A stretch of DNA of 64,000 nt from an uncultured bacterium (GTDB lineage: Bacteria > Hydrothermota > UBA3072), in contig CAZHNS010000003.1 in NCBI GenBank assembly GCA_964534175.1, positions 63,939 through 127,938 on the forward strand. The letters run 5' to 3'. Position 1 is the first letter of the stretch, and every line of letters begins with the position of its first letter. Under the pieces are notes generated by a model. It worked only from the letters and a program-made list of their open reading frames with translations, did not search any database and was not told where the DNA came from. The translations under genes were made by a program, and so were the position numbers. Shown piece by piece: positions 1,189 to 45,016 of the stretch.

Positions 1189-3372
1189 ATGAAAATATTT
1201 ATACGTAATCTTTGTTTAGGTTTTGTCTTAGTTTTATTGTTATTTAGTTCTTTTAATATCTTTAGTTGGCCTAATATTCCTAAAATTCCCGAAGTTAAGG
1301 GTATAACGGATAAAATTGCTGATAAACTTCCAGGGTTGGACAAAATATTAAAAAGTGATCCTCCGGTAACAACAAATCTAAAGGATGCAATAACTGAAGT
1401 ATCCATACTGGATGATTATGAGCCTGCTTCACTGGATTTTTTATGGATGGGAGACCTGCCCAGAAGTAAGAAAGGTGCTTTTAAACTTGAGCGTCCAGGA
1501 TTATTCGAGTTCACGGCGCAGAGTTACTGCCTTAAAGCTGGAACATATTCTCCCGGGCAGGGTAATGGTTATCTTTATGCTCCGCTTAAAGGTCCTCAGG
1601 GTGATATTGTAGGAAATGTTCTGAGGAATTCATATGAACATCCGGAAATAGAGCAAAGGAAGGTTCAGGTTTTACTGTGGGCGATTATTGCTCGTACTAA
1701 ACTTACGGATATGTCGACAGAGAATCAGTTGACTGCTTCGAAACTATTGACGCCAGAAGAAATGTTTGAACTCAACGGAGGCGCGCTTGGGCTTGTTCCT
1801 GAAGATATGAAAGAAGAAGCATTTGGTAAAGTTCCGGAAGAGGTGAGGACGGTTCTCGAAGCGGAAGCAAAATTACGTGAAAAACTTACTTCTGTTGAAT
1901 CAAAATATGAGGATCTTGAACGCATCGCCGTTTTGACTGGAAAGGTCCCGATGGGCAAAGACAGTAGGGCAGTGCCTTCCGGAAGATGGTCCTATCATGG
2001 GGACGGATACTTTATAAGGTTCTTTCCTGCTGGGTATTCGCAGGATAAAATTCAGATTTCTATTGCTCCTAAAATTACAATTAAAAAAGATAGCAAAGGT
2101 AGAATAATTTCTCTTTCGGATGATGATGGAAATCTGATTGAAGTCGAATACGATGAAGCAAGTTCTATGAATGTAAATAAAGATTCGAAAGTGAAAGCTT
2201 ACGCTTTTAAAAAAGTCCATTTCGTTAAAATGCTCACCGTTCCACCGGAGATGGTTTTAGACCTTGAAGCCGATTGGACAGGAAAAGGATGGGTTTTTAA
2301 AGGGGAACCTTCAGGTAAGGGTTCGCCTTCAACTACGACAAAATTTACTGGTACTTCAAAACGTTATAAAGAAGCATCGGGATATAGAGAAGAGTTAAAG
2401 AATCTGGATAAGGTTTTGAAACTGAAAGGTGGCGTAGAAGATTTAATGAATCTTGTCCATTTTAAAATGGCAATAAAAGATTTAGTTGTTAATAATTCCG
2501 CCAGTAATCGAATTTGGGCAAAAGGACATGCCGATCTGGCAAATGAAGCAATTCAGTATCTTATAACTGAAAAAGAAGGTAGTTACGTATGGGCTTTTGC
2601 CGATTACGATAATTACTATGGAAAGGGGCTAAGAGAGACATTCTTTTCTATATTGAAGTCTTTTATTTCTTTGCCTGTTTATGCTGATGCGGATAAGATA
2701 CCCTGGTTCAACCCAGGTGATAATGTCGGGACACCGGGCAATACTTCGAGGCAGCGAATTGGTAATTCCGGACGTCCTGCATTAAGTGATGAGGAGAAGC
2801 AAAAAGCATGTGACAAGTTGAATGAGGAAATACAAAACGAACAGACTATTTTAGATGCATATTCTGATAAAGGTTTACTCGATGCGGCTAAAGCCAATGG
2901 ATATGATGGTTATGAGTACAATAACTGTGTTAAAAATTTTCTTGAAAAAACTTTTGGTGATGAGCAATTTACTCCTTTCGAGGATTTGAGCCCGAGCGAA
3001 CAGTCAGATGTACTTAAACAACCTTCAGGAGCTGATTCCGGTCCGAATTTTGATGCTCCCATGCACACAACTCCTGACTGCAGAATTGTAGAAAACTGGA
3101 CCACTCAGGACTATATAGATAAATTCGGAGAGACGGCTGGTAAGGCCCTGCAGCATGCTCACCGGGCACATGAAGGTTCACATCAAAAAACATGTAAGGA
3201 TAAAACCAATTATCATGATGTGCCTCCCGGACAGGGATCTGGTTGGCCGATCGACCCGGATGGATATGATGATTATATGAAAGATCCTGACAATTATAGT
3301 AAAGATGAACAGGAAGCATATAAGGCAGGTATTGCTGACAAGGAAAAATCCCTGGCGGATTTAGGATGCTGA
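1189..3372 (+). CDS. Large secreted hypothetical protein (signal peptide; Cys/His/Asp-rich C-terminal region)
   Basis: 727-aa ORF, N-terminal hydrophobic signal peptide after MKIFIRNL, strong RBS AAAGGAG; no family recognised. Confidence 0.55.
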   Translation: MKIFIRNLCLGFVLVLLLFSSFNIFSWPNIPKIPEVKGITDKIADKLPGLDKILKSDPPVTTNLKDAITEVSILDDYEPASLDFLWMGDLPRSKKGAFKLERPGLFEFTAQSYCLKAGTYSPGQGNGYLYAPLKGPQGDIVGNVLRNSYEHPEIEQRKVQVLLWAIIARTKLTDMSTENQLTASKLLTPEEMFELNGGALGLVPEDMKEEAFGKVPEEVRTVLEAEAKLREKLTSVESKYEDLERIAVLTGKVPMGKDSRAVPSGRWSYHGDGYFIRFFPAGYSQDKIQISIAPKITIKKDSKGRIISLSDDDGNLIEVEYDEASSMNVNKDSKVKAYAFKKVHFVKMLTVPPEMVLDLEADWTGKGWVFKGEPSGKGSPSTTTKFTGTSKRYKEASGYREELKNLDKVLKLKGGVEDLMNLVHFKMAIKDLVVNNSASNRIWAKGHADLANEAIQYLITEKEGSYVWAFADYDNYYGKGLRETFFSILKSFISLPVYADADKIPWFNPGDNVGTPGNTSRQRIGNSGRPALSDEEKQKACDKLNEEIQNEQTILDAYSDKGLLDAAKANGYDGYEYNNCVKNFLEKTFGDEQFTPFEDLSPSEQSDVLKQPSGADSGPNFDAPMHTTPDCRIVENWTTQDYIDKFGETAGKALQHAHRAHEGSHQKTCKDKTNYHDVPPGQGSGWPIDPDGYDDYMKDPDNYSKDEQEAYKAGIADKEKSLADLGC

Positions 3373-5547: not shown

Positions 5548-5567
5548 AATGTGATTTTTTTCACAAC
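5548..5567 (+). promoter_or_regulatory. Rex-type operator (TGTGA-N6-TCACA) abutting the -35 box of the Ehr-like operon promoter
   Basis: aaTGTGAttttttTCACAAc at 5548-5567; TTGACA at 5568-5573 then 17-nt spacer and TATTAA; rex gene encoded at operon end; a TTGTGAA half-site also at 5602-5608. Confidence 0.4.
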
Positions 5568-5671: not shown

Positions 5672-6196
5672 TTGTATAAAAATGAGGGTTTTACTGTAAA
5701 AGAAAGAATAAAAAGTTTCTGCTGGTTGTTTTTCTTCCTTGTTATCCTCTGGTTACTGCTTACCTCGACTTTTAATTCTCAGGAATTAATAGTTGGTGTT
5801 TTTGTTTGTTCTGTAATTGCTCTTGTAACTTATAAATTTTATATTAAATTAGGTTTTCCTTCTGTAAGCCTTAAGAAGTTTTACTTTTCTCTTGTTTATA
5901 TATTAGTTCTTTTTTTTGAGATATTGAAAGCCAATATAGATGTAGCCCTGCGAGTTATCCGTCCCTCCCTGCCAATAAATCCCGGTGTAATAATTATAAA
6001 GACAGGCCTTAGATCAGATATCGCAAAAACAATTCTGGCTAATTCCATAACTCTAACGCCCGGTACATTTACTCTGGATATTCAAGGAAATAAATTACTA
6101 ATTCACTGGATAGATGTAGAAGCGACTGATATTGATGCCGCGACTAATATTATAGGCGAAAGATTCGAAAAATATTTGAGGGTTATATTCCAATGA
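5672..6196 (+). CDS. Mrp/Mnh antiporter subunit E-like (MbhA-like)
   Basis: MrpE-type membrane N-terminus and LTPGT motif; TTG start with GGAGGG RBS; first gene of 13-gene operon. Confidence 0.65.
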   Translation: MYKNEGFTVKERIKSFCWLFFFLVILWLLLTSTFNSQELIVGVFVCSVIALVTYKFYIKLGFPSVSLKKFYFSLVYILVLFFEILKANIDVALRVIRPSLPINPGVIIIKTGLRSDIAKTILANSITLTPGTFTLDIQGNKLLIHWIDVEATDIDAATNIIGERFEKYLRVIFQ

Positions 6197-6447
6197 TTGC
6201 AACAATTTATTTTGTAGTTATAGGCTTAGGGGTTGTCTTATGTTTGCTCAGGATGATTAAAGGTCCTACTGCTCCTGATCGTGCTGTCGCGCTGGATACA
6301 GCGGTGACAGTCACAGTCGCGTTGTTGGTCCTTATTGGTCTTGTCCTCCGAAGAAGAATATATCTTGATGTTTCATTGGTATATGCTGTTCTAACCTTTA
6401 TAGGTTCAGTTGCAATAGCAAGATATCTTGAGGGAGGAATCGAATGA
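6193..6447 (+). CDS. Mrp/Mnh antiporter subunit F-like
   Basis: 84 aa, 3 TM, MrpF/PhaF-like pattern (LLRMIKGPTAPDRAVALD); overlaps neighbours by 4 nt. Confidence 0.65.
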   Translation: MIATIYFVVIGLGVVLCLLRMIKGPTAPDRAVALDTAVTVTVALLVLIGLVLRRRIYLDVSLVYAVLTFIGSVAIARYLEGGIE

Positions 6448-6782
6448 TCTGGGGCTGGTGGGTTACGGGGTTTGGTGTAATATTTTTGTTCCTGGGGAGC
6501 CTCGGCGTATATAGGATGCCTGACGTATACAATAGATTGCAGGCGGGAACAAAATGTACGACACTTGGCGCTTTCTGTACCATTATTGGTGTTGGAATAA
6601 TAGAGCCTTCCTGGTTCTGGACAACTTTTATAATCGCGGTATTTGTATTATTGACTAACCCAATATCGAGTCATGCACTTGGAAGAGCGTCCTGTATTTC
6701 AAAAGTCAAACTCTGTAAAAAAACAAAGGTTGATCAATCGGAAGGTTTTTGTAGCGAAGGGGATGATGAAGATGATTCTTGA
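6444..6782 (+). CDS. Mrp/Mnh antiporter subunit G-like
   Basis: MnhG-like N-terminus (FLFLGSLGVYRMPDVYNRLQAGTK...); translational coupling. Confidence 0.65.
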   Translation: MIWGWWVTGFGVIFLFLGSLGVYRMPDVYNRLQAGTKCTTLGAFCTIIGVGIIEPSWFWTTFIIAVFVLLTNPISSHALGRASCISKVKLCKKTKVDQSEGFCSEGDDEDDS

Positions 6783-7017
6783 AGTAATCCTGGTTTTCGT
6801 AATGCTTGTGGGTGCCGTTGCTGCCGGTTTTTTTAAAGATTTGTTAAACGCGGTAATCGCTGCCGGCTTTGTTAGTTTTATTGCGGCGATACTCTTCTAT
6901 TTTCTTCATGCTCCCGATGTAGCTATGGCTGAAGCTTCTATTGGTGCTGCCTTAACTGTAGCAATTTTCATAATAGCTATTAAGAAAACAAAAAGATTCG
7001 AGGAAGATGATGCGTAA
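6763..7017 (+). CDS. MnhB-domain small membrane subunit (MbhD-like); start taken at internal ATG 6763 rather than ORF-track 6673
   Basis: ORF 6673-7017 overlaps MrpG-like gene for 110 nt; ATGATGAAGATG at 6763 gives 84-aa 3-TM protein matching MnhB-like DUF4040 proteins of Mbh/Mbx clusters. Confidence 0.5.
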   Translation: MMKMILEVILVFVMLVGAVAAGFFKDLLNAVIAAGFVSFIAAILFYFLHAPDVAMAEASIGAALTVAIFIIAIKKTKRFEEDDA

Positions 7018-7693
7018 GATAATTAGTTTTATTTTAATAACAATAATAGCAGCAGGTATCTTTTTCTCACTGGAGGAAGTACCTTTTGGAGCCACGAAAA
7101 GCAGAGTGAGAGAGTATTATCTTGATAACGGTATAAAACAAACAGGAGCTACAAATATAGTGACATCTGTGGTGGTTAATTATCGTGGTTTTGATACTCT
7201 CGGAGAAGTAACTGTACTGTTCCTCGCGAGTATTGGTCTTTCCGCGGTTCTTTACAGAAAAAAAGAAGAGAGAGGAAAAAAGAGAAGAGAGAGCAGTTTG
7301 ATTTTATATACCGGCTGCAGGTTTTTGTTTCCTCTTATTCTCCTTTTCGGTTCATACATATTTATTCATGGCCATTTGACTCCCGGAGGAGGTTTTCAGG
7401 GAGGAGCTATCATAGCATCCGGGTTTTTGCTAACCATGCTTGGTTGTTGGGGATGGGAAGGAATTAACAGGAACAGATTTAAGATAACAGAATCTCTCTC
7501 GGGTCTTGCCTTTGTTGTTATAGGTCTTCTTGGATTACTTTACGGAGGGTATTTCCTTTTTAATTATCTGCCCAAAGGAATACCTAATCAGCTTTTTAGC
7601 GCCGGAATTATTCCTCTTGTGTATATTGCCATAGGATTCAAAGTGGGTTCGGAGATTGCGGGTATAATAAATGATATGGTGAGGAGCGGGTAA
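7007..7693 (+). CDS. Mrp/Mnh antiporter subunit B-like (MbhE/F-like)
   Basis: MnhB-domain pattern (GATNIVTSVVVNYRGFDTLGEVTVLF); multi-TM. Confidence 0.6.
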   Translation: MMRKIISFILITIIAAGIFFSLEEVPFGATKSRVREYYLDNGIKQTGATNIVTSVVVNYRGFDTLGEVTVLFLASIGLSAVLYRKKEERGKKRRESSLILYTGCRFLFPLILLFGSYIFIHGHLTPGGGFQGGAIIASGFLLTMLGCWGWEGINRNRFKITESLSGLAFVVIGLLGLLYGGYFLFNYLPKGIPNQLFSAGIIPLVYIAIGFKVGSEIAGIINDMVRSG

Positions 7694-8052
7694 TGGAATT
7701 CATAGAAAATTATCTGTATTATATCGCATCCTTTGGTTTAATCCTTATAGGTCTTTATATAATGCTTATCAAGAAAAATTTGATAAAAATTATTATAGGT
7801 CTTTCAATTATAGATACGGGAGTAAATATTTTATTAATTACTATGGGTTATTTAAAAGAAGGAACCGCTCCTATTTTCTCACGTGAGGGTTTACTGCCTT
7901 CAAGGATGGTAGATCCCGTGCCACAGGCACTGGTTCTGACTGCTATTGTGATAGGAGTTGCAATTCTTGCGCTTGCATTGACTCTGGCGGTAGTCCTTTA
8001 CCGTCATTACGGAACTCTCAATGTTAGAAAAATAAGGAATCTTAAATGGTAA
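7693..8052 (+). CDS. Mrp subunit C / NuoK-like small membrane subunit
   Basis: 119 aa, 3 TM; NuoK/MrpC-like fold; coupled ATG overlapping previous stop. Confidence 0.65.
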   Translation: MEFIENYLYYIASFGLILIGLYIMLIKKNLIKIIIGLSIIDTGVNILLITMGYLKEGTAPIFSREGLLPSRMVDPVPQALVLTAIVIGVAILALALTLAVVLYRHYGTLNVRKIRNLKW

Positions 8053-9524
8053 ATCCTGTTTTACTTATAATTATTCCTTTAGCCGGAGCTTTTGCTATAC
8101 CGTTATTTGGTTTTATTTCCAAACACATATCAAAATATATTTCTTTAATTTCTACTCTGGTAATGGCTGTAATTGTGGGTTTTTTAGTTCCGCAAGTTAT
8201 AAACAATCCCATAATTGTTTTGATTGGAGGTTTTAAGCCACCTTTTGGTATCAACCTTGTTGTAAGCCCCTTTTCTCTGTTTTTCGCGGGTGTTATAAGC
8301 TTGCTTGGTTTTCTTGTGTCCATTTATGCTATAAAATATATCGATGATGGAGATATCGAAAAGTATCACCTTTTATTTCTGCTTTTCATAACAGGAGCCA
8401 CAGGAGTTGTCCTTACAGGTGACATATTTAACTTATTTGTTTTCTTTGAGATACTCTGTATTTCTTCCTACGCTCTGGTTGCTTATAACAGGGATAGGGA
8501 TGGAGTGGAAGCCGGTATAAAATACCTCATTCAGGGTTCTGTGGGTTCGTCTTTTATTCTTATTGGAATAGCCCTAATTTATGGACTTTGCGGCTCATTG
8601 AATATGGCAGATATAGCAAGTCAAATTCATTCCGTAAATTCCCCCTTATTATCTCTTGCGCTGTTTCTTTTTCTTACAGGTTTTGGAATCGAAGGAGCTA
8701 TATTTCCACTGAATGCCTGGTTACCCGATGCTCACGCGAGTGCTCCCTCGACTATAAGCGCTGTACTTTCCGGTTTTGCAATCGAAGTAGGAGTATATGC
8801 AGTCGTGCGGTTTGTCTGGACCATATTCGGAGCGTTAAGTATTCTTCATTTTCTTGCAGGACTTGGAGTTCTGACACTGCTTGTTGGTGAACTAGCAGCT
8901 TTCAGGCAAAATCGTATTAAGCGCATGCTTGCTTATTCATCAATAGGGCAGATAGGTCTTATTGTTTTTGCTTTTGGGATAGCTTCTACTGCAGGAGTTA
9001 AAGGAGCTTTATTACAAATTGCATCTCATGCAATGGCAAAAGCTTTGCTCTTTTTGGCTGCAGGTTATATGATATATAGAGCGGGATCTAAGGATATTTC
9101 TTCGCTGGAAGGAATGGGGAGAAGAATGCCTTTTACTTCTTTAGCTTTCACGGTAGGAGCTTTTTCGCTTGTGGGTTTTCCGCCTTTTGTAGGGTTCTCC
9201 AGTAAGTTTTTAGTAATAAAAGCTGCATTGGCTGAAGGACAGCTTATATTTACCATTCTTATCGGGTTTGTTTTATTAGGCACAATAATCGAAGGATCTT
9301 ATTTCCTAAAAGTAATTCAAACAATTTATTTTAAAGGGGGAGAAGTTAATTCTAATAAAAGAATAGAAGCTCCTATCTGTGCTTTGATTCCCATGGTTAT
9401 TTTGCTTATGCTAATCGTAGTTGTAGGGGTATATCCAGGCTTAATAAATAGCGTTTTAGACTCGGCAGCTTCAGGGTTCCTGGATAGAATGCAGTATATT
9501 AAGACCGTATTGGTAGGAATATAA
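8046..9524 (+). CDS. MrpD/NuoM/NuoN-family proton-translocating antiporter-like subunit
   Basis: 492 aa, about 14 TM; conserved WLPDAHA motif region (AWLPDAHASAPSTISA). Confidence 0.75.
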   Translation: MVNPVLLIIIPLAGAFAIPLFGFISKHISKYISLISTLVMAVIVGFLVPQVINNPIIVLIGGFKPPFGINLVVSPFSLFFAGVISLLGFLVSIYAIKYIDDGDIEKYHLLFLLFITGATGVVLTGDIFNLFVFFEILCISSYALVAYNRDRDGVEAGIKYLIQGSVGSSFILIGIALIYGLCGSLNMADIASQIHSVNSPLLSLALFLFLTGFGIEGAIFPLNAWLPDAHASAPSTISAVLSGFAIEVGVYAVVRFVWTIFGALSILHFLAGLGVLTLLVGELAAFRQNRIKRMLAYSSIGQIGLIVFAFGIASTAGVKGALLQIASHAMAKALLFLAAGYMIYRAGSKDISSLEGMGRRMPFTSLAFTVGAFSLVGFPPFVGFSSKFLVIKAALAEGQLIFTILIGFVLLGTIIEGSYFLKVIQTIYFKGGEVNSNKRIEAPICALIPMVILLMLIVVVGVYPGLINSVLDSAASGFLDRMQYIKTVLVGI

Positions 9525-9536
9525 AGGAGTTAAGAG

Positions 9537-11390
9537 ATGCTTTTAGAGGTACTGCTTATAGTCGCATTTGGGGGAGCGTTTCTGACCTATCTCCTTGGGA
9601 AAATTTCTTCCAGATTACGCGATGTATTTGCAGTTCTTGTCTCTTTAGCTTTGGTAGTTATTACCTGTTTGCTTTACAACAAGCAACAGCAAATAGTTTA
9701 CTTTGCATTCTTCGACAACCCTCTTATTCTTAGATCGAATATGCTTTCCTGGTTTTTCGGTATTACAATCGTAGGGATTGGTTTTCTGTCGGTAATTTAT
9801 TCTTTGGGATACATGGGGAAAGAAGAAAAATTGGATTATTATTACTTTATAGTGATACTTATTAATGCATCTATGATTGGAACTGTTTTTAGTGGTGACT
9901 TTATATCATTTTTTATGTTTTGGGAAATAATGAGTTGGAGTACCTTTCTTTTAATAAGCTATAAGGGAGGTAAGGCGTTATCTGCTGGAATGAAGTATAT
10001 AATTATGTCAATTATTGGGTCCATGACTATGTTAATTGCTATTATTAGTTTATATGTTACCTGTGGTACTCTGGAATTTTCTTCCCTGGTTTCTCAAGTG
10101 GAAATTACTTCAATGAGCTACAATTTATTCCTTCTCATTATGTTTGGGGTTGTCTTTACCATTATTAATGCATTCTGGCCACTTCACACCTGGCTTCCTG
10201 ATGCACATGCGGAAGCCGTGAGTCCCTTTTCATCGATTCTTTCAGCAGTACTTGTAAGAAAGGGGTTGTATGGACTCTACCTCGTTATGTATATAATATT
10301 AGGTTTAAATGTCTTGAATAGGTTGACTTTCGGATTTATAAGTTATAATAATGTGTTCTGCTTCATTGGTGCGGTGACTATAGTTTTTGCGGCATTTAGT
10401 GCTTTTCTTCAGGATGATAGTAAGAGAATTCTTGCCTGGAGTACGGTTGGTCAGGGTGGTTATATGATTTTGGGAATTGCGTTTACCACAGCTATTGGGC
10501 TTGCTGGAGGTATGTTCCACGTTTTGAATCATTGTATTTATATAGGTTTACTTTTCTTCGTGGCTGGCGCAGTGGAACGCCAAACCGGAGGGATAAGAGA
10601 TATAAATAAGTTAGGTGGATTAATTAAAAGAATGCCTGTTACTTTTATTGGAGGCGTGGTGGGTATATCTGGTTTAATTGGGCTGCCCTTAACCTGTGGT
10701 TTTGTTTCCAAATGGTTAATATATAAAGCGTTAATTTTGGGAAACCGTCCATTTTTAGCATTTGCTGCATTTATGGGAACCTGGGGAACCATTTTGTACG
10801 GATATAAATTTATTCATAACATTTTCTTAGGTCAGTTGCCGAAAGAATTCGAAGATGTCAAAGAAGTTCCCTTTTCAATGAGATTCCCCATAATTTTATT
10901 GACAATAGCGGTTATTTTAATTGGCGTTCTTCCCGGCATACCCCTTAAAGTCATAAATATTATTAATGTTTCTGCCGGTTTTAAAGCTTTATCGATAAAT
11001 ATATCAGGTGTTATTTCGGAGACGGGTGTGTTAAATACTGTAAATATCTTTACCGCCATTTTAGCGGCTTTGTTAGTAATTTATTTATTATTCCGTACAG
11101 GTGCCGAATCAGAGAGAGTCTCCCAGGAAGATTCTTATGCTGCAGGTTCATATATTCCTGTAGGGAAATATCATTACACTGTTAAATTTTACGATCCGTT
11201 TTCCAGACTTGCGAAACCATGGCTGAAGGATAGGATAGATAATTTTTACGAATGGTTAACCCGCATAGTGGAGAAAATAGCTGAAAGACAAAGGCGTATT
11301 TATACAGGAGATTTAGGTTTTTACCTCGTATACATTGTTCTTTTTCTGGCAGCATTGATTTTTGTGCGGATTATATGTAGGCAATGGTGA
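9537..11390 (+). CDS. MrpA/NuoL-family antiporter-like subunit (second large antiporter subunit, MbxH'-like)
   Basis: 617 aa; TWLPDAHAEAVSPFSSILSAV motif of complex-I subunit L/M/N superfamily; long C-terminal extension. Confidence 0.75.
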   Translation: MLLEVLLIVAFGGAFLTYLLGKISSRLRDVFAVLVSLALVVITCLLYNKQQQIVYFAFFDNPLILRSNMLSWFFGITIVGIGFLSVIYSLGYMGKEEKLDYYYFIVILINASMIGTVFSGDFISFFMFWEIMSWSTFLLISYKGGKALSAGMKYIIMSIIGSMTMLIAIISLYVTCGTLEFSSLVSQVEITSMSYNLFLLIMFGVVFTIINAFWPLHTWLPDAHAEAVSPFSSILSAVLVRKGLYGLYLVMYIILGLNVLNRLTFGFISYNNVFCFIGAVTIVFAAFSAFLQDDSKRILAWSTVGQGGYMILGIAFTTAIGLAGGMFHVLNHCIYIGLLFFVAGAVERQTGGIRDINKLGGLIKRMPVTFIGGVVGISGLIGLPLTCGFVSKWLIYKALILGNRPFLAFAAFMGTWGTILYGYKFIHNIFLGQLPKEFEDVKEVPFSMRFPIILLTIAVILIGVLPGIPLKVINIINVSAGFKALSINISGVISETGVLNTVNIFTAILAALLVIYLLFRTGAESERVSQEDSYAAGSYIPVGKYHYTVKFYDPFSRLAKPWLKDRIDNFYEWLTRIVEKIAERQRRIYTGDLGFYLVYIVLFLAALIFVRIICRQW

Positions 11391-11394
11391 TATT

Positions 11395-12276
11395 ATGAAG
11401 GTTGCTTCGTTTTTCATCTTACCTATTATCGGCTTTACAGTTGGTATATTTTTCATGGGTTTATCCAGAAGAATAATGGCTAGGATACATTGGAGATATG
11501 GTCCTCCTCTGGTTCAACCACTTCTTGATATCATAAAGCTCTTTCACCAAAGAAGTATATCCCATGGAGTTATTTTTGAACTTGGTCTTCTTCTTTCCTT
11601 AGCCGGGAGTATAGTTACTCTTCTTTTTATTCCTATAGGCAATATATGTGCACTCGATATGTCTGGAGGACTTCTGGTAATTTTATATCTTATGCTTTTA
11701 GCGCCTTTCGGCATAGCTTTATCAGGAGGAGAAGCGGCAAATCCAAACGCGAGTATTGGAATTTCCCGAAAGATGCTTTTGGCTTTGAGTTATGAAGTTC
11801 CATTTCTTTTAGCTCTTCTGGCGGTTATGATAGAATATAACACGATCTCTATAGTTGAAATAGTTGAGCTTCAGAGGGCTTCGAGTTGGGGAATTGTTTC
11901 TCTACCTTTATCGGCTATAGCTCTTTTCCTTATTTTACCAGCAATGCTCGGCATAAGACCCTTTGATGTGGTAGGAGCACCGCAGGAGATCGCTTCCGGT
12001 CCAAAAGTTGAATATGGCGGTAAATTTTTAGCATTATATAATATTGAACGAGCTTTTCATGAGTTTATTATTATTGCGCTATTTGTTAATTTGTTCCTTG
12101 GGGGGGCTAATGACCCATTCACTTTCTTTCTAAAGATGTTAATAATATTTGTACCTTTTATCAGTGTTAGTGCTGTTTTTCCAAGATTTAGAATTGAACA
12201 AGCAATTCGCTTCTGCTGGAGATTGCCGACTATTTTGGCTCTTATAGGTTTGATTATTGCAAGTGTGTGGAGGTAA
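11395..12276 (+). CDS. NuoH/HycD/MbhM-like membrane subunit (respiratory complex I subunit 1 family)
   Basis: RIMARIHWRYGPPLVQPLLDIIKLF matches NuoH/HyfC N-terminal signature; ATG 11395 chosen over ORF-track 11362. Confidence 0.7.
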   Translation: MKVASFFILPIIGFTVGIFFMGLSRRIMARIHWRYGPPLVQPLLDIIKLFHQRSISHGVIFELGLLLSLAGSIVTLLFIPIGNICALDMSGGLLVILYLMLLAPFGIALSGGEAANPNASIGISRKMLLALSYEVPFLLALLAVMIEYNTISIVEIVELQRASSWGIVSLPLSAIALFLILPAMLGIRPFDVVGAPQEIASGPKVEYGGKFLALYNIERAFHEFIIIALFVNLFLGGANDPFTFFLKMLIIFVPFISVSAVFPRFRIEQAIRFCWRLPTILALIGLIIASVWR

Positions 12277-12836
12277 AAATGGATAGAAAAGTTGTAAGGA
12301 AATGGTTGAAGGATCCAGAAAAAATGGGTAATAAGTATTCTCTCTGGGCTGTTTATTTCTGCACGGGCTGTGGAATAATTGAAGTTCCTCCGGTTATAAC
12401 TTCTCGCTGGGATGCAGAGAGATTTGGCGTTATTCCTGTAGCGACCCCAAGACAGGCAAATTTGTTTTTAATTACGGGTTATGTCTCTCTGAAAACTTTA
12501 AGAGCTATCATAAGGACCTATGAGCAGATGCGAGAGCCAAAATATACAGTAGGGTTTGGTTCATGTCCGATAAACGGAGGTATGTACTGGGATTCATACA
12601 ACACCATCAAACACCTTGATAAATATATACCGATTGATGGTTGGATTGCCGGTTGTATGCCTAGACCTGAAGCGATATTTATTGCAGTAACGCATCTATG
12701 GACTTTGATCGATAAGGGTATGGCAAACGCATACAAAAAGTACAGAAAACAATATAAATATTATCGAAGGAATCAGGAAATGGCGCTGGGAAAACTCGAA
12801 TGGCCACCCCTGTACCCAATAATTGAAGATGAATAA
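12267..12836 (+). CDS. NuoB/hydrogenase-small-subunit-like [4Fe-4S] subunit (MbhJ-like)
   Basis: Four Cys in CTGCGIIE ... GSCP ... AGCMPRPE arrangement; CxxC (hydrogenase-small-subunit type) rather than CC (NuoB type). Confidence 0.75.
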   Translation: MEVKMDRKVVRKWLKDPEKMGNKYSLWAVYFCTGCGIIEVPPVITSRWDAERFGVIPVATPRQANLFLITGYVSLKTLRAIIRTYEQMREPKYTVGFGSCPINGGMYWDSYNTIKHLDKYIPIDGWIAGCMPRPEAIFIAVTHLWTLIDKGMANAYKKYRKQYKYYRRNQEMALGKLEWPPLYPIIEDE

Positions 12837-13338
12837 AAAGATAATTACAGAATTAGAAACGACGTTTAAAGATATTGAAGTAAATGCTTCTAAGGATACC
12901 AGAATGGAAATTTGTGCTCGTGAAGAGCAGATTTTAGCAATTTTGAGATTCATTGCCAATAAGGGTTATGACCATTTAGCCCTTATCTCCTGTGTGGATT
13001 GGATTGAAGAAGAGGAATTTGAATTGGTTTATATAATTACCTCTTACTCGCAGGAAAATAAGGTATACCTGGATAAGGGAGATATTTTTCTCAAGACAAG
13101 AATTGCAAGAGAAAATCCGGAAGCACGAACGGTAATTCCGATTTTTGCCAATGCTGAGCCGTATGAACGAGAGATTCATGAGCTCTTCGGAGTGAAGTTT
13201 AACGGTCATCCAAGATTAACACATCTTCTGTTAGAAAGAGATTATGAAATACCCCCATTCAGGAAAGATTTTGATACAAGAAAGTATGTTAAGGAAGTTT
13301 TTGATTCAATTCCTGCAATCACAGAGGAGGAAGAGTGA
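12823..13338 (+). CDS. NuoC-like (30-kDa subunit; MbhK-like)
   Basis: EREIHELFGVKFNGHPRL matches NuoC ERE..D(L/M)FG signature. Confidence 0.7.
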   Translation: MKMNKKIITELETTFKDIEVNASKDTRMEICAREEQILAILRFIANKGYDHLALISCVDWIEEEEFELVYIITSYSQENKVYLDKGDIFLKTRIARENPEARTVIPIFANAEPYEREIHELFGVKFNGHPRLTHLLLERDYEIPPFRKDFDTRKYVKEVFDSIPAITEEEE

Positions 13339-14432
13339 GAGAAGTTGAACTCTATTTTGGTCCGCAGCACCTCGGGATGGTAGGAAATTTTAGTATAACG
13401 TTGAAGGTAGAGGGAGATCGTATTTTAGAAGCTACTGCGAATCCGGGATTTCTTCATCGTGGATTTGAGAAGTTGATGGAATGTCGAACCTGGATACAAA
13501 ATTTTCCCATGGTTTGTAGAATAAACGTTGTAGAGCCTGATCATATGGAAATGGTGTATGCAATGGGAGTGGAGAAATTAGCAAATATAGAAGTGCCGGA
13601 AAGGGCGCAGTGGATAAGAAGTATATACCTTGAACTTGCTAGAGTTGGTTCGCATCTTTTTGGTTTGTGGGCTTATTCCAATATGTTGGGTTTTGATACT
13701 GTTGCTCAGTGGGCGATGTACCATAGAGACCTGATTCTGGATCTTTTCGAGGAATTAACAGGCGGGAGGGTATATCATATTTATATCTGGCCTGGTGGGG
13801 TAAGACGTGACTTTCCGAAGGGTTTTACAGATAAAGTCGTAGAGACTTTACATTCAATAGGGAAGTGTGTTCCCGATTATAACGATACATTTTTCAAAAA
13901 TCCGCTGTTTTATGAGAGAACTCATGATATAGGAAAAGTAACGAGAGAAGAAGCAGAGAAATGGGGAGGAGTAGGACAGGTATTAAGAGCTACAGGAAAG
14001 TCCTTTGATATAAGGAAGGTGGAGTCCTATGCAGCTTATGATAAAGTGGATTTTAACATACCCACAAGAGAAGACGGAGACGCGTATTCGAGGATTATGG
14101 TGATAAGAGATGAAATGATAGAATCCGTTCATTTGATTTTTAAACTAATTGAAGGATTACCGAAGGGAGAAGTTTATAACAAAGTACCCAATCCTTTTAA
14201 GTGGAATATCGAAGAAGGTGAATCTTATGTAAGAGTTGAATCTTCGAGAGGAGAATTAGGGCTTTATCTGGTAAGTGATGGCGGAGATAAACCTTATAGA
14301 GTCCATTTTAGAACGCCTTCTTATTCTCATGGTCTAACAATATTAGAGAAAGTCTTAGAAGGCGCTAATATCTCGGATGTAGGAAATATCATGATTAGTA
14401 TGTACGTTGTCGCTCCTGAGATAGATAGATGA
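13335..14432 (+). CDS. NuoD-like / [NiFe]-hydrogenase-large-subunit-like catalytic subunit LACKING both Ni-Fe cysteine motifs
   Basis: GFLHRGFEKLME (NuoD/EchE-type HRG.EK) but no RxCGxCxxxH after it and C-terminus ...YVVAPEIDR has no DPCxxCxxH. Confidence 0.7.
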   Translation: MREVELYFGPQHLGMVGNFSITLKVEGDRILEATANPGFLHRGFEKLMECRTWIQNFPMVCRINVVEPDHMEMVYAMGVEKLANIEVPERAQWIRSIYLELARVGSHLFGLWAYSNMLGFDTVAQWAMYHRDLILDLFEELTGGRVYHIYIWPGGVRRDFPKGFTDKVVETLHSIGKCVPDYNDTFFKNPLFYERTHDIGKVTREEAEKWGGVGQVLRATGKSFDIRKVESYAAYDKVDFNIPTREDGDAYSRIMVIRDEMIESVHLIFKLIEGLPKGEVYNKVPNPFKWNIEEGESYVRVESSRGELGLYLVSDGGDKPYRVHFRTPSYSHGLTILEKVLEGANISDVGNIMISMYVVAPEIDR

Positions 14433-14456
14433 GAAAAATGAGTAATTTAAATTTAG

Positions 14457-16331
14457 GTGAGGTTTACAGAAATGGATAAAAAAACTTCAATTCTGAGTCC
14501 GTTAAAGGCGTTAAAATATCTTTTCAAAAAACCAAAAACTTTAAGATATCCGTTTGAACTTAAAGAGCCTGCAGAAAGATATAGAGGTTTACATCTAAAT
14601 GATTGGGATCAGTGCACGGGTTGCGGAAACTGTGCAGATATTTGTCCTAATGAGGCAATTCTTATGAAAGAAATACCGGAAATCGAGGCAAAAGACGGAG
14701 AGAGAAATGAGCGCCCCGAAATAGATTACGGTAGATGCTGTTTTTGCGGATTATGTGTTGATATTTGTCCGACAGGTTCCATCCGGCTATCCAGAGATTA
14801 TTTTCATATCCATTTTGACCCCAAGACTTTCAAGCTTCTGGCAAAAGATGAAAAAACGGACGGGGAACACTTCCTTCCTGAGGGGAAATATTCTATTCTT
14901 AAAGCATCGCTTGCCCATCGAAGAAAAAATTATGAGGGTTTTAGTTCTGACTTAGAATACGCACTGTTTGACCCTGAAAGAGTACAGATGTCTCAGGCTT
15001 CACCCAAAGAGAGAAAATCCTCTTTTATTGAACAGGTAAAGGGTTTCAGCGCACAGGAGGCTCTAAAAGAAGCGAGTCGATGTTTGGAGTGTAAGTTATG
15101 CGAGGAAGTCTGTCCTGCCGGTATGGATATAGTTGATTATGTACGCAATTTATGGGAAGGTGATTTAGAGGAAGCGGTCAGGGATATTTACAAAACAAAT
15201 CCCTTACCCGGCGTTTGTGGTAGAGTTTGCACGCATAATTGTGAGTCTGCCTGTGTACTTAGTCATCGAGGTGAACCTGTATCTATAAGATGGTTAAAGC
15301 GTTATGTTGTGGATAATCTTTCTCTTTCCGAATATCAAAAGGTGCTTGAAACAGAAAAAATTAAATCTATAGGGAAAAAAGTTGCTATAATTGGCGCGGG
15401 TCCGGGAGGCTTATCGGCTGCTTATTATCTCAGATTGATGGGTTATAAGGTCGTTATCTTTGAGAAGTTGCCCGAACCCGGTGGGATGCTGAGATATGGT
15501 ATTCCTGAATACCGACTTCCCTATGAAGCTTTAAATAAAGATATTGAATATATAAAATCTGTAGGAGTAGATATTAGATGTGATAATACTGTTGGCGAGG
15601 ATATTTCACTTGCTGAACTTCGGGATAATTATGACGCGGTTTTTGTGTCTACTGGTTTTCATGCCGGGCGGAGTACCGGAGTTCCGGGAAGTAAAAACCC
15701 TCACGTTTTTCAGGCAATAGAATTACTCAGAAAGGTGACGATGGGAGAAGAGATTGAAGTTACCGATAAGATTGTGGTAATAGGTGGGGGAGATGTTGCT
15801 ATGGATATTTCGAGAACACTTGCCCGATTGCAGATGAAGAAATTTGGAGCTGTAGATATTACTCTCAGTTGCTTGGAAACGAGGGACATTATGCCCGCTA
15901 CTCCGGAAGAAATAGAGGAAGCTCTTGAAGAAGGCATTAAAATGTATCCGGGATGGGGTCCGGAGAAGATTATTATAGAAAAAGAAAAAGTTAAGGGTAT
16001 AGTTATGAAAAAGTGCCTCAGGGTTTTTGACGAAGAAGGAAAGTTTAATCCTGAATTTGATGATAAGGAGAAAAAGGATTTTGAGTGTTCGATGGTCGTT
16101 GAAGCAATAGGGCAGGCACCTGATTTTACTTTTATATCAGAAGATATAAAAGTAAAACTTAAATATGAGGGAAGAAGGATGAAAGTTAATGAGTATGGTC
16201 AAACTTCATTGCCTTGGTTATTCATCGGAGGAGATATCCTGAGGGGTCCCGATGTAATTAACGCTATCGATACCGGACATAAGGCCGCAAGAGGTATCGA
16301 TAAATTTATCTCCTCCAAAGAGAAAAAATAA
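14457..16331 (+). CDS. Fusion protein: NuoI-type 2x[4Fe-4S] ferredoxin (N-term) + GltD/NfnB/SudA-like FAD/NAD(P)H oxidoreductase (C-term)
   Basis: CTGCGNCADICP and CCFCGLCVDICP (NuoI-like); then CLECKLCEEVCP + CGRVCTHNCESAC (GltD-type Fe-S), GXGXXG FAD site VAIIGAGPGGLSAAYYL and second dinucleotide site VVIGGGDVAMD. Confidence 0.75.
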   Translation: MRFTEMDKKTSILSPLKALKYLFKKPKTLRYPFELKEPAERYRGLHLNDWDQCTGCGNCADICPNEAILMKEIPEIEAKDGERNERPEIDYGRCCFCGLCVDICPTGSIRLSRDYFHIHFDPKTFKLLAKDEKTDGEHFLPEGKYSILKASLAHRRKNYEGFSSDLEYALFDPERVQMSQASPKERKSSFIEQVKGFSAQEALKEASRCLECKLCEEVCPAGMDIVDYVRNLWEGDLEEAVRDIYKTNPLPGVCGRVCTHNCESACVLSHRGEPVSIRWLKRYVVDNLSLSEYQKVLETEKIKSIGKKVAIIGAGPGGLSAAYYLRLMGYKVVIFEKLPEPGGMLRYGIPEYRLPYEALNKDIEYIKSVGVDIRCDNTVGEDISLAELRDNYDAVFVSTGFHAGRSTGVPGSKNPHVFQAIELLRKVTMGEEIEVTDKIVVIGGGDVAMDISRTLARLQMKKFGAVDITLSCLETRDIMPATPEEIEEALEEGIKMYPGWGPEKIIIEKEKVKGIVMKKCLRVFDEEGKFNPEFDDKEKKDFECSMVVEAIGQAPDFTFISEDIKVKLKYEGRRMKVNEYGQTSLPWLFIGGDILRGPDVINAIDTGHKAARGIDKFISSKEKK

Positions 16332-16341
16332 TTTCGAGAGA

Positions 16342-16974
16342 ATGGACAAAGAAGATATCCCAAAAGAGACAATAGAAAGACTTCTATTTTATACAAAGTG
16401 CCTATCGACTTTTAAACAATCAGGCAAGGAACAGTTTTCATCAGCGGATATTGCCAGGAGGTTAAAACTTAAGCCCACATTGGTGAGGAAAGATCTCTCT
16501 TATATTGGACGGATTGGCAGAAGAGGGATTGGCTATAATGTTGAAAGAGTTCTGGACAAGATAAATCGAGTCGTTTATTATGAAAAAGAGCATCAGGTTG
16601 CTCTTATAGGTGTGGGGAATATCGGAAAAGCATTAATAAATTATCCCGGATTTCAAGCACACGGATTGGTTATAAAACTCGCTTTCGAGAAAGACAAGGA
16701 AAAAATCGGTAAGGAAATTTATGGCGTTAAAATTGAAGATATAAAAACACTTAAAAAAAGAGTGGCAGAGGAAGAGATAAAAGTCGGAATTATAGCTGTT
16801 CCTCCTATTCAGATTAAAGAAGTTATTGATATTGTTAAAGACTCAGAAATAAAAGCGATTCTTAATTTTACCTCCACATGTATGATGCCCTATGACGATT
16901 TAAAAGGGAAGTTAAAGATAAAAAATATCGATCTAGCGGTTGAGATGCAAAGATTGGTGTATTATTCATCATAA
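16342..16974 (+). CDS. rex: Redox-sensing transcriptional repressor Rex
   Basis: N-terminal winged-helix IPKETIERLLFYTKCL...RKDLSYIGRIGRRGIGYNV and Rossmann VALIGVGNIGKAL typical of Rex; 10 nt after the NuoI-GltD gene. Confidence 0.8.
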   Translation: MDKEDIPKETIERLLFYTKCLSTFKQSGKEQFSSADIARRLKLKPTLVRKDLSYIGRIGRRGIGYNVERVLDKINRVVYYEKEHQVALIGVGNIGKALINYPGFQAHGLVIKLAFEKDKEKIGKEIYGVKIEDIKTLKKRVAEEEIKVGIIAVPPIQIKEVIDIVKDSEIKAILNFTSTCMMPYDDLKGKLKIKNIDLAVEMQRLVYYSS

Positions 16975-27266: not shown

Positions 27267-27776
27267 ATGAAAATTTTAAAAAGAGTTTTAATCGTGATTG
27301 GTGTTCTGATTGCTTTGATGGTTATTGCTTTTGGAGTTTATTTGCTGGTTAATCGTCAGAGTGTTGCAGAGCCTTTCGAAGTAGGTTCTCCCGACTCGGC
27401 CAGGAAAATTTTGATTGTCACACAGGGTAGCGATTATAAAAATCTTATGGTAGATACTCTTATTTCCCGGTTAAAAGGAGAGGACGTTTATATAAGCGTA
27501 ATAGATATATCAGGATTAAACGAAATTTCTCAGGAAGATTGGGACGCGGAGATTATCATTCACACCACTGAAGGTTATAGATTGCCCGAGAGTGTTAAGG
27601 AATATCTTTTGCGAATAGAAAACCCTGATGAGGTTATGCTTCTTATTACTTCGGGTAGCGGAGAATGGAAGCCGGAAGATTGTAAGGTCGATGTCCTTAC
27701 TTCAGCTTCGAGAGTTACCGATATACCTGAAAAGGCAAATTATATAAAAGATAAAATAAATTCACTTTTTGAGTGA
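27267..27776 (+). CDS. Hypothetical membrane-anchored protein (N-terminal TM, flavodoxin-like beta-alpha-beta pattern)
   Basis: 169 aa; single N-terminal TM; no family recognised. Confidence 0.4.
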   Translation: MKILKRVLIVIGVLIALMVIAFGVYLLVNRQSVAEPFEVGSPDSARKILIVTQGSDYKNLMVDTLISRLKGEDVYISVIDISGLNEISQEDWDAEIIIHTTEGYRLPESVKEYLLRIENPDEVMLLITSGSGEWKPEDCKVDVLTSASRVTDIPEKANYIKDKINSLFE

Positions 27777-28377: not shown

Positions 28378-29799
28378 TTATTTAATAATTAGTAACTTGT
28401 AGCTTTTTCCTGAATTATGAACTTTAACTATGAAAATTCCTGAAGGAAGTTTATTTATATCTGTAATAGCAATTTTTCTTCCTGTTACGGAAAAGATACT
28501 TATTTCCTCTGTGTAAACTAATCTTTGTATGTCTGGCAGGAATAAAGTATTTTTTCTACTTTCCAGTAATTCTTCTACCGGCTGGTGATTTGGGAAGAGA
28601 TCATTCCATTTGTACCACTGTGGAGAAAAGTAGGAAGCATCATGCGCGGAATCCGCGAATGAAACCGCGAATAGTGAATCATTTGGCAGGAAAAAAAGTG
28701 TGTGCAAAGTATTTTCGCACGCCAAGGATTTCATTAAATTTTCCATTCTATTGAAAGTTATATCTGGGTTAGTCCGCAGTGAATCTAAGACGGTATAGTA
28801 TCGCGAGTCGAACAAAGGTGCATAATTAACTTCTTCGTGATTTAAGGCTAAGAGATACCATGGGTAAAGATTTTCGTCATTTTCAGAGGTTCTGAAGGTA
28901 TCTCCTGATTCGTTGACACACTCTAAAACGGCTGCCGAAATTGTTGAAGAATCTACGTATGGTATAACTGTATGCAAAAGCCATGCGCCGCCGTTATTCA
29001 CTTCGAGAACTTTTTCGTATGCGTCTCGAAAGTTTACTATATGGTCTTTGTTATAATCGGAAATTTCGAGGATTTCCCTCAAGATAAATTGCATAGGCAT
29101 AACTCTTGGTTTTTTATTTGGAGTGCTAGTATGATAACCGGCGTTTATTGCCAAAGTGAGCATATCTTCGTTTACTCCTGAAATAGTCGAAATTATTCCC
29201 GGAAAACCAAAACCTACCCAGGCTTTTCCGCTATCGGGTTCGAAAGTCATTATGAGTCCTCGTTCTGCATCACTCATTTCGTGGGTTAAATCAAGATTTC
29301 TTCCCAGAATAATGTTTCCTTTTATTAAAGTATCGTTTATGGTTGCCTTACCCCAGGCAGAAAGAGAACTGCAGCCGAGGCTCTCTATGCTTAAAAAAAC
29401 ATAGTTTATATCGAATGTTGAATTTCCAAGTAGAATGTCGATTACATCCAGGTCACGGAGCAGTTCGGGAATATAAATATCCTCTCCAGAGGCTATTATT
29501 CCGTCTATTATTCCTTCGGCTTCTTTTTGATATTTTTTGGGAACAGTGAAGTAATTCCTATAATTTAGATGCAAATACTCGTATTCAAAGTAAGATAAAT
29601 CAATGATTTGAAAGCAAAATTCAGTAAGAAAATCAACTATTCTTTTATTTAATAGATATCCCTGTGCAAATCCCATTTCATAGTTGTTTCCCCAGACATT
29701 AAGAATCTCCTGCTCTCCATTGTATCGGAGAGAACCATTGATTGCAGTAGCTTCAGAAGTTATAATTAGGAAGGACAAGATAAGAATGAATTTTTTCAT
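28378..29799 (-). CDS. Secreted Ntn-hydrolase-like (peptidase C45 / acyl-CoA:6-APA acyltransferase-like) protein with T9SS C-terminal sorting domain
   Basis: Signal peptide; internal Gly-Cys (LGCSSLSAWG) resembling the autoproteolytic G-C site of C45/AAT-family precursors; C-terminus ...INKLPSGIFIVKVHNSGKSYKLLIIK Por-tail-like. Confidence 0.45.
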   Translation of the reverse strand: MKKFILILSFLIITSEATAINGSLRYNGEQEILNVWGNNYEMGFAQGYLLNKRIVDFLTEFCFQIIDLSYFEYEYLHLNYRNYFTVPKKYQKEAEGIIDGIIASGEDIYIPELLRDLDVIDILLGNSTFDINYVFLSIESLGCSSLSAWGKATINDTLIKGNIILGRNLDLTHEMSDAERGLIMTFEPDSGKAWVGFGFPGIISTISGVNEDMLTLAINAGYHTSTPNKKPRVMPMQFILREILEISDYNKDHIVNFRDAYEKVLEVNNGGAWLLHTVIPYVDSSTISAAVLECVNESGDTFRTSENDENLYPWYLLALNHEEVNYAPLFDSRYYTVLDSLRTNPDITFNRMENLMKSLACENTLHTLFFLPNDSLFAVSFADSAHDASYFSPQWYKWNDLFPNHQPVEELLESRKNTLFLPDIQRLVYTEEISIFSVTGRKIAITDINKLPSGIFIVKVHNSGKSYKLLIIK

Positions 29800-45012: not shown

Positions 45013-45016
45013 AAAT

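Follow-up and report, generated by a model that had tools for sequence, protein, structure and literature searches.

What does a relative of the [NiFe]-hydrogenase large subunit do when every cysteine that would hold the metal is gone? We address this question for a gene at positions 13335 to 14432 of a 64,000-nucleotide stretch of DNA, hereafter the window, from an uncultured bacterium of the GTDB lineage Hydrothermota (UBA3072; assembly GCA_964534175.1, contig CAZHNS010000003.1, positions 63,939 to 127,938 of the forward strand). The gene very probably encodes the MbsL-type subunit of a respiratory complex of the bacterial MBX/MBS class, one that has no Ni-Fe site and neither uses nor produces H2. 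A first-pass annotation, made from the letters of the sequence, had read the locus as a complex derived from an energy-converting hydrogenase that lost its H2 chemistry, and this interpretation is supported by matches of the subunits to the solved MBS structure of Pyrococcus furiosus (Protein Data Bank (PDB) entry 6U8Y) and by the placement of the large subunit in the MbsL clade.

The open reading frame (ORF) at 13335-14432 (+ strand) opens with a GTG start that overlaps the stop of the NuoC-like gene upstream by 4 nucleotides, and it encodes 365 residues that match Complex1_49kDa in Pfam (245 bits). An exact-sequence look-up found no identical sequence on record. All three motifs named in the first-pass annotation are present, with LHRGFEKL (the HRG.EK block) at residues 40-47, VCRINVVEPDH at 60-70, and VAPEIDR at 359-365. 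The protein was aligned in MAFFT with Escherichia coli HycE, E. coli NuoCD, P. furiosus MbsL (its sequence taken from its PDB-search alignment with the window protein), and 150 diverse homologues, and five columns were read: the Ni-Fe ligand positions C1 to C4 and, after C1, a column designated G. In the order C1/G/C2/C3/C4, HycE has C/G/C/C/C, P. furiosus MbsL has C85/V/E/C385/D, and E. coli NuoCD has E/Y/G/V/D. The window protein has N64/V65/E67/V359/E362, with cysteine at none of the four ligand positions. The register of the alignment is secure, since all sequences share the flanking R62 and the terminal ...IDR; no cysteine proved to be shifted, and the annotated absence of both Ni-Fe cysteine pairs was borne out. 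We considered C61, three residues before C1, as a shifted or compensating ligand and rejected it. About half of the C1-keeping relatives also carry it (VC-RICVPEPD), and since it co-occurs with C1 it is an older feature of the family rather than a displaced ligand. The protein stops at ...EIDR, the point from which HycE runs on for 32 residues of cleaved C-terminal extension. Among 34 homologues of 79-87% identity, N64, V65, E67, Y357, and E362 are invariant, V359 is nearly so, and not one carries any of the four ligand cysteines. The cysteine-free state is not a sequencing accident, as it is conserved in these 34 homologues; the public record has more than 120 protein clusters of at least 79% identity.

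Public homologues are labelled "NADH-quinone oxidoreductase subunit D" by NCBI and JGI, and the window protein passes the NCBIfam NuoD model NF004739 (414.9 bits against a cut-off of 360). This naming is an annotation trap, outweighed by the evidence for MbsL. The protein scores 339 bits to 6u8y_L, no more than 235 bits to any NuoD or 49-kDa chain, and 131 bits to MbhL (E=6e-37; HycE, 1e-28). A distance-based neighbour-joining tree places it inside the MbsL clade, beside the group-4 hydrogenases and apart from NuoD. Its own clade was monophyletic in 100/100 bootstraps, and the sister group consisted only of MbsL-type sequences that retain C1 and C3, again in 100/100; no clustering with standard NuoD was seen when this placement was checked. 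Strict monophyly with six chosen MbsL sequences was recovered in 44/100 bootstraps, as other MbsL-like sequences interleave, and the sister-group test was used instead. An AlphaFold2 model (shallow alignment of 34 sequences; mean pLDDT 69.5, pTM 0.75) was compared against the PDB with Foldseek, which ranked MbsL at the top; complex I 49-kDa chains equalled it on TM-score (0.72-0.76), so that fold alone cannot separate MbsL from NuoD.

A scan of species-representative genomes returned, among the matches listed, at least 593 stretches that encode a large-subunit relative (E <= 1e-3), and we examined the best 80. These 80 related loci, numbered here with the prefix L, show the same synteny as the window operon. 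Most of their large subunits keep C1 and C3 (RICVPEPD ... CPPE[IV][DE]R). In the window protein and those of L003-L019, C1 is replaced by N and C3 by V, T, or A; in L076, L081, and L082, which form a second group unrelated to the first, the replacements are A and Y; and in L071 and L079 only C3 is gone. Judged from these columns, full loss of the cysteines has occurred independently at least twice within the MBS lineage. The window clade is tight, with 77-93% identity among members and more than 120 protein clusters at >=79%, and its next relatives in the representative library reach at most 48% identity. In between fall two metagenome-assembled genomes (MAGs) from the genome scan, L016 at 59% and L018 at 56%. 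Members of the clade are labelled Stahlbacteria/WOR-3, Sumerlaeota, Planctomycetota, Spirochaetales, Bacteroidales, Thermotogae, Elusimicrobia, KSB1, Coatesbacteria, and Eisenbacteria, MAG labels that may be unreliable.

Several further observations concern the large subunit. Across genomes labelled as different phyla it is 77-86% identical, with the membrane subunits of the same operons at about 50-66%, a gap that could reflect either strong constraint on the J/L pocket or recent horizontal spread, with the same caution over MAG taxon labels. In the second cysteine-less lineage C3 is replaced by Tyr (HTYPPEIER), and in the window clade the invariant Y357 stands two positions ahead of where C3 was. 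Replacement by an aromatic hydroxyl close to the proximal cluster may have happened repeatedly; the Y357 equivalent is missing in L016 and L018. Two relatives are fusions that keep C1 and C3: P0126 (668 residues) combines NuoI-, NuoB-, and NuoD-like parts in one polypeptide, and P0122 (566 residues) is a NuoC-NuoD-type fusion.

The large-subunit gene is number 12 of 13 co-directional, tightly packed genes spanning 5672-16331. These genes, together with an operator-like site before them and a regulator gene after them, are as follows.

5550..5565, no strand: Rex operator-like palindrome TGTGATTTTTTTCACA in the promoter region, ~107 bp ahead of the operon's first gene
5672..6196, + strand: MbsA-like (MrpE/MnhE) membrane subunit (Pfam MNHE; best PDB match 6u8y_A, E=2e-42)
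6193..6447, + strand: MbsB-like (MrpF) subunit (Pfam MrpF_PhaF)
6444..6782, + strand: MbsC-like (MrpG/MnhG) subunit (Pfam PhaG_MnhG_YufB)
6763..7017, + strand: MbsD-like small membrane subunit (Pfam MbhD; frame open from 6673, start likely near 6763)
7007..7693, + strand: MbsE-like (MrpB/MnhB + MbhE) subunit (Pfam MnhB, MbhE)
7693..8052, + strand: MbsG-like (MrpC/NuoK-like) subunit (Pfam Oxidored_q2)
8046..9524, + strand: MbsH-like antiporter-type subunit (MrpD-like), 492 residues (6u8y_H, E=3e-108, full length; Pfam Proton_antipo_M)
9537..11390, + strand: MbsH'-like second antiporter-type subunit (MrpA-like), 617 residues with a long C-terminal extension (6u8y_X)
11362..12276, + strand: MbsM-like (NuoH-like) membrane anchor of the peripheral arm (best PDB match 6u8y_M, E=9e-57)
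12267..12836, + strand: MbsJ-like small subunit with the predicted proximal [4Fe-4S] cluster (best PDB match 6u8y_J, E=2e-63)
12823..13338, + strand: MbsK-like (NuoC-like) subunit (Pfam Complex1_30kDa)
13335..14432, + strand: MbsL-like large subunit without any Ni-Fe cysteine (best PDB match 6u8y_L, E=4e-100; column analysis; phylogeny)
14457..16331, + strand: MbsN/NuoI-like part fused to an NfnB/GltD-like module, 624 residues (Pfam, NCBIfam, and PDB matches)
16342..16974, + strand: Rex, an NADH/NAD+-sensing transcriptional repressor (NCBIfam NF003995, 213.6 bits against a cut-off of 126; Pfam Put_DNA-bind_N, CoA_binding)

The complex predicted from these genes is made of a membrane arm derived from an Mrp antiporter and a peripheral arm derived from a hydrogenase. 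For every subunit compared (A, H, H', M, J, L, and the N-terminal part of N), 6U8Y is the best match among solved structures; the MbsH'-like subunit aligns with the 618-residue chain 6u8y_X across residues 12-609 (E=6e-67). The true start of the MbsM-like gene may be an ATG about 33 nucleotides downstream of 11362. Pfam and NCBIfam models found no NuoA, E, F, G, or J in the operon, the membrane arm being of the MnhE/F/G/B/C type. Among the relatives, one Thermotogae-labelled MAG (L012:2670-13485) has a circularly permuted operon, with J-K-L-N first and then A-B-C-D-E-G-H-H'-M. In nine loci of gammaproteobacterial sulfur oxidisers (L021, L025, L033, L038, L049, L051, L053, L056, and L058), the fused N gene is followed directly by a conserved ORF of ~150-190 residues that looks ferritin/rubrerythrin-like, with two E-x-x-H motifs, and a similar one occurs in L031 (Marinimicrobia). 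In Mesoaciditoga (Thermotogota, L074), nfnA-nfnB lie immediately downstream. These two, the ferritin/rubrerythrin-like ORF of Gammaproteobacteria and the nfnAB of Mesoaciditoga, were the only recurring downstream partners in the 26 loci inspected.

The small subunit (12267-12836) carries C32-T-G-C35, GSC100P, and GC130MP. The first-pass annotation was right about these motifs and about their departure from the tandem CC of NuoB, and it called the CxxC hydrogenase-type, a part that did not stand: FCTGCG, GSCPINGG, and AGCMPRPEA are identical to those of P. furiosus MbsJ, and the CxxC loop is shorter than in HycG. By these motifs, the small subunit is of the MbsJ form and not of the hydrogenase form. 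Of 71 relatives, 70-71 keep each of the three ligand cysteines, and 25 have Gly in place of the first cysteine of the CxxC (P. furiosus C25). In the MBS structure that first cysteine is not a cluster ligand (PMC7684303), and its replacement in 25 relatives is a natural confirmation of the non-ligand role. The proximal [4Fe-4S] cluster of the window complex is thus probably held by three cysteines only, as in MbsJ. Conservation along the operon is highest in J (83%), L (79%), and the NuoI part (72%), falls to 54-66% in the membrane subunits, and is lowest in the GltD part (47%). Constraint is therefore strongest on the pocket and on the wire of Fe-S clusters, and this speaks against the pocket being vestigial.

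Two neighbours that the first-pass annotation did not mention are the most informative of all: the NuoI-GltD fusion (14457-16331), and rex with its operator. Residues 1 to ~120 of the fusion are MbsN/NuoI-like with two [4Fe-4S] clusters, and residues ~175-624 form an NfnB/GltD/SudA-like module with two more [4Fe-4S] motifs, FAD, and a predicted NAD(P)H site. The protein matches Fer4_7, Fer4_20, and Pyr_redox_2 in Pfam and PRK13984 in NCBIfam (854 bits); its N-terminal part matches 6u8y_N (E=8e-32), and its C-terminal part matches NfnB (4ylf_B, E=7e-76; 5jca_L, E=7e-73). Motifs CLECKLCEEVCP and CGRVCTHNCESAC of the flavoprotein module are readable in the sequence. Of the 74 bacterial loci that could be assessed, ~68 carry the fusion, and N is unfused only in archaeal relatives (DHVE2, Thermoplasmata), one Synergistota locus, and two Sulfurovum loci.

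The nucleotide motif of the module is SCLETRD (window 15800-15860), with Leu-Glu where NADPH enzymes have Arg-Arg. It aligns with AYRRDEE of E. coli GltD and VYRRSEK of an NfnB, and its Glu matches that of VAREELD in the NADH-dependent E. coli PreT. The module thus appears to prefer NADH. Across the family the GltD module occurs in two discrete forms, an NADPH-type YRRR form and an LE[TDS][RW] form with a 6-residue insertion. The latter is found in the window, the whole cysteine-free clade, gammaproteobacterial sulfur oxidisers, and some spirochaetes, and the Mesoaciditoga module is of the former, NADPH type. The two forms, together with the low conservation of the GltD part, suggest repeated switches or swaps of nucleotide specificity. 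We set aside electron bifurcation at the NfnB-like flavin, as the operon has no gene for an NfnA-type second exit, and for the same reason assume a simple, non-bifurcating wire.

The palindrome at 5550-5565 is the sole exact TGTGA-N6-TCACA in the 64-kb window, against 0.03 expected, and rex itself follows the operon. In relatives rex often heads the operon, with the box in front of it: among these rex-first loci, L004 and L014 have a perfect copy, and the copies of L018, L046, and L078 deviate at one position. In L052 a perfect copy lies between rex and the first structural gene. At up to one mismatch the background is 0.024 boxes per kb. A box before the first structural gene as a general rule was rejected, with 3 of 46 loci having one at the same tolerance. 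The window operon is probably under the control of Rex, and such control would fit an enzyme that consumes NADH better than one that produces it.

How close, then, is this complex to known ones? With P. furiosus MBS it shares 13 genes in the same order (mbsABCDEGHH'MJKLN), the absence of a Ni-Fe site, the MbsJ cluster motifs, and two antiporter-like pumps with a full Mrp module. It differs in that C85 and C385 of MbsL are N64 and V359; in that the free-standing MbsN of ~200 residues, the entry point of ferredoxin, is here fused to a flavoprotein of ~450 residues; and in that the operon is bacterial with Rex-type control, whereas the archaeal one is under SurR. The coupling loop of MbsM is intact, with the equivalents of P. 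furiosus D196, E203, and E211 kept, whereas E193 and E104 are not conserved, being R and L in the window. The series of Fe-S motifs that leads to the MbsJ cluster is likewise unbroken. The MBS paper noted that two of the four cysteines survive in MbsL and not one in complex I, which it read as stepwise loss; it placed catalysis at the three-cysteine proximal [4Fe-4S] cluster and found C85, C385, and MbsJ C25 dispensable for polysulfide reduction in P. furiosus mutants (PMC7684303). The bacterial mbx-like operons of Thermotoga and proteobacteria resemble the window operon in architecture and in the gltD-related flavoprotein already noted at the NuoI position (PMC4758237), and the MBX of Thermotoga maritima likewise has 13 subunits (PMC9431562). 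The mbx-like operons described so far and most of the relatives keep two vestigial cysteines, whereas the window clade keeps none; many relatives have the NADPH-type YRRR, whereas the window has LE, the NADH type. Our search found no open-access paper connecting "Mbx" with WOR-3, Sumerlaeota, Melioribacter, or the symbionts that oxidise sulfur. As the MBX/MBS class is already known, the pattern recognised in the first-pass annotation is expected rather than new.

The reading that we prefer, with a probability of roughly 0.4 to 0.45, is that of an NAD(H)-linked, ion-translocating MBS-type complex whose chemistry takes place at the proximal cluster and is probably the reduction of sulfane sulfur. 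The fused flavoprotein would be the NADH-oxidising input module, in a role like that of NuoEFG in complex I, and electrons would pass from NADH to FAD and then through two [4Fe-4S] clusters of the GltD part and two of the MbsN part before reaching the proximal [4Fe-4S] cluster in MbsJ. This cluster, with three cysteines and a free iron as in P. furiosus MBS, would reduce its substrate in a hydrophobic pocket formed by MbsL, MbsJ, and MbsM. The pocket chemistry would in turn drive H+ or Na+ translocation via MbsM, MbsH, MbsH', and the Mrp module, with ferredoxin possibly an additional donor. Because the pocket subunits and the proximal ligands are the most conserved parts, we infer that electrons still reach the cluster and do chemistry there. 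The substrate would most probably be sulfane sulfur (polysulfide or persulfide), which is favoured because no other chemistry has been demonstrated for this cluster motif, because T. maritima mbxA is up 4.4-fold with elemental sulfur (S0) (PMC9431562), and because many carriers are Gammaproteobacteria that store or oxidise sulfur, or come from sulfidic habitats. Rex would turn the operon on when NADH accumulates, making the complex an energy-conserving NADH sink. Since the step from NADH to polysulfide releases little free energy, the machine might work near equilibrium and might be reversible.

A number of points weigh against this reading. The donor, the acceptor, and the pumped ion are all inferred. 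NADH (~-320 mV) to polysulfide (~-260 to -270 mV) yields ~10 kJ per 2 e-, which is little for two antiporter-like pumps. No neighbouring gene hints at a substrate, and no sulfur-metabolism gene adjoins the operon, either in the window or in the 26 inspected loci; about half of the relatives have the NADPH-type YRRR motif, some of them rex-linked. Growth of Melioribacter roseus, a carrier of one relative (L039), was not stimulated by S0 (PMC3534657). The low-confidence segments of the AlphaFold2 model (9-17, 39-67, 145-155, and 359-365) are those of the pocket, making its geometry unusable. In the literature searched we found no biochemical characterisation of a bacterial MBX, purified or assayed, and bacterial Mbx is usually assumed to be a ferredoxin:NAD(P)+ oxidoreductase (PMC4758237; bioRxiv 10.1101/322537).

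That assumption gives the main rival, a less probable one in our estimate: an ion pump that oxidises ferredoxin with NAD(P)+, doing the job of Rnf, with which the complex shares no homology and of which it would be, on this account alone, a possible functional analogue in joining the NAD(H) pool to low-potential electrons through ion translocation. Reduced ferredoxin would bind at the MbsN part, and its electrons would exit via the GltD module to NAD+, or to NADP+ where the motif is YRRR, leaving the MbsJ/MbsL pocket a role in coupling only. It is the standing assignment for bacterial mbx-like operons with a gltD-like subunit, for which bioRxiv 10.1101/322537 cites Schut 2013. The energetics are better, ~25 kJ per 2 e- suiting a pump of one or two ions, and the predominance of fermentative anaerobes among the host lineages, the loss of all MbsL-pocket thiols in two independent lineages, and the lack of any S0 benefit for M. 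roseus all agree with it. Yet such a route bypasses the proximal cluster, although no subunits are better conserved than J and L, and the three ligands are invariant. No member of the complex I/MBH/MBS superfamily is known to achieve coupling without chemistry in a pocket of the MbsL/MbsJ type, which counts against it as well. P. furiosus MBX was once assigned this function too, before sulfane reduction took its place (PMC7684303), Rex would suit an NADH consumer better than a producer, and in M. roseus the pump would be redundant, as this organism also has Rnf (PMC3534657).

Could the complex instead have converged on complex I and reduce a quinone? An NAD(P)H:quinone oxidoreductase would use the GltD module in place of NuoEFG and bind menaquinone in the cysteine-free pocket, and the resemblance to NuoD/Nqo4/49-kDa subunits is real: all four hydrogenase cysteines are lost in both, the C-terminus VVAPEIDR resembles vvfGEIDR of NuoD, the NF004739 model is passed, the fold match to 49-kDa subunits equals that to MbsL, and in both complexes the far end of the Fe-S chain is occupied by a nucleotide-oxidising module, here of the GltD/NfnB type and not NuoEFG. 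We nevertheless consider this improbable. The positions of the quinone-ligand residues Tyr87 and His38 of Thermus thermophilus are V65 and V16 in the window; V65 falls in the column of the RLDY Tyr and V16 in that of the second HPAAHG His. The small subunit has the MbsJ motif, CTGC, where NuoB has SCC, with the tandem CC of cluster N2. The membrane arm is Mrp/MBS-type without NuoA or NuoJ, and the large subunit forms a separate clade placed with MbsL rather than with NuoD.

An ordinary NuoD of standard complex I, as the database names and the NF004739 match would have it, is refuted by the bit scores, by the MbsL-type sister group in 100/100 bootstraps, and by an operon with Mrp E/F/G/B subunits and no NuoA, E, F, G, or J. 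With the group-4 hydrogenases (MBH 6CFW, HycE 7Z0S, Ech), the window subunits share ancestry, the LHRGxEK block, and the spacing of the small-subunit CxxC; they differ in lacking the L1 (RxCGxCxxxH) and L2 (DPCxxCxxH/R) cysteine pairs and the C-terminal extension, in the shorter small-subunit loop, and in having a second antiporter-like subunit with a complete Mrp module. We give next to no credence to an active group-4 [NiFe] hydrogenase with unconventional ligands, or to a decaying pseudogene relic of one, despite the homology to HycE and MbhL: against the former stand the 0/34 close homologues with a ligand cysteine, the missing maturation extension, and the absence of hyp genes among the window ORFs scanned (a scan that left out small ORFs), and against the latter an intact frame, homologues of 79-93% identity in >120 clusters, and the place of L among the most conserved subunits.

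Elsewhere in the window, an 876-residue protein (24359-26989, - strand) has ~14 tandem repeats of the form FDGTNYLVVW...DIYG(A/T)R and a terminal Por_Secre_tail, the sorting signal of type IX secretion. Its other Pfam matches are faint (DUF3659, GH43); it looks secreted and of the beta-propeller type, and the Por_Secre_tail indicates a host with type IX secretion (FCB-group-like). At 43512-47467 (+) and 47474-49034 (+), the gene for a McsB-like arginine kinase (ATP:guanido phosphotransferase) immediately precedes that for a ClpC/ClpB-type AAA+ chaperone, and parA-parB follow; McsB-Clp is a protein-quality-control module of Gram-positive style, here in an apparent diderm with type IX secretion. 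Five ORFs had no Pfam match at E <= 1e-5: 1189-3372 (+), 727 residues; 28378-29799 (-), 473 residues; 33762-34811 (-), 349 residues; 37250-38488 (+), 412 residues; and 27267-27776 (+), 169 residues.

The complex is thus of a known kind, and what is new is the combination of a cysteine-free MbsL, an NADH-type fused flavoprotein, and Rex control. MBS has been presented as a "missing link" between hydrogenases and complex I on the strength of the two Ni-Fe cysteines, of four, that it kept. The MBS lineage shed those remaining two on its own, at least twice, which agrees with their dispensability in the mutants. Counting cysteines is consequently unsafe for telling MbsL from NuoD, and databases already name such proteins NuoD. 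A bolder proposition, which we hold to be doubtful, is that this widespread lineage arrived independently, as a second case, at a "complex I-like" NADH dehydrogenase: its Mrp-based pump of the MBS type would have lost all four hydrogenase cysteines and acquired an NfnB/GltD-type NADH input in parallel with complex I. If so, its terminal chemistry would take place on a site-differentiated [4Fe-4S] cluster and not on quinone, as an NADH-linked, ion-pumping sulfane-sulfur reductase, or an oxidase in reverse. Its carriers range from WOR-3/Stahlbacteria-like bacteria, Bacteroidales, spirochaetes, and Planctomycetota to the sulfur-oxidising symbionts of clams and tubeworms, and it could explain the dark reduction of stored sulfur in sulfur-storing bacteria, or the feeding of NAD+ from sulfide. 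The complex is very common and strongly conserved, and it is tied to the NAD(H) pool by its fused flavoprotein and by Rex; the question of its substrate matters for anaerobic bioenergetics and for the metabolism of sulfur-oxidising symbionts.

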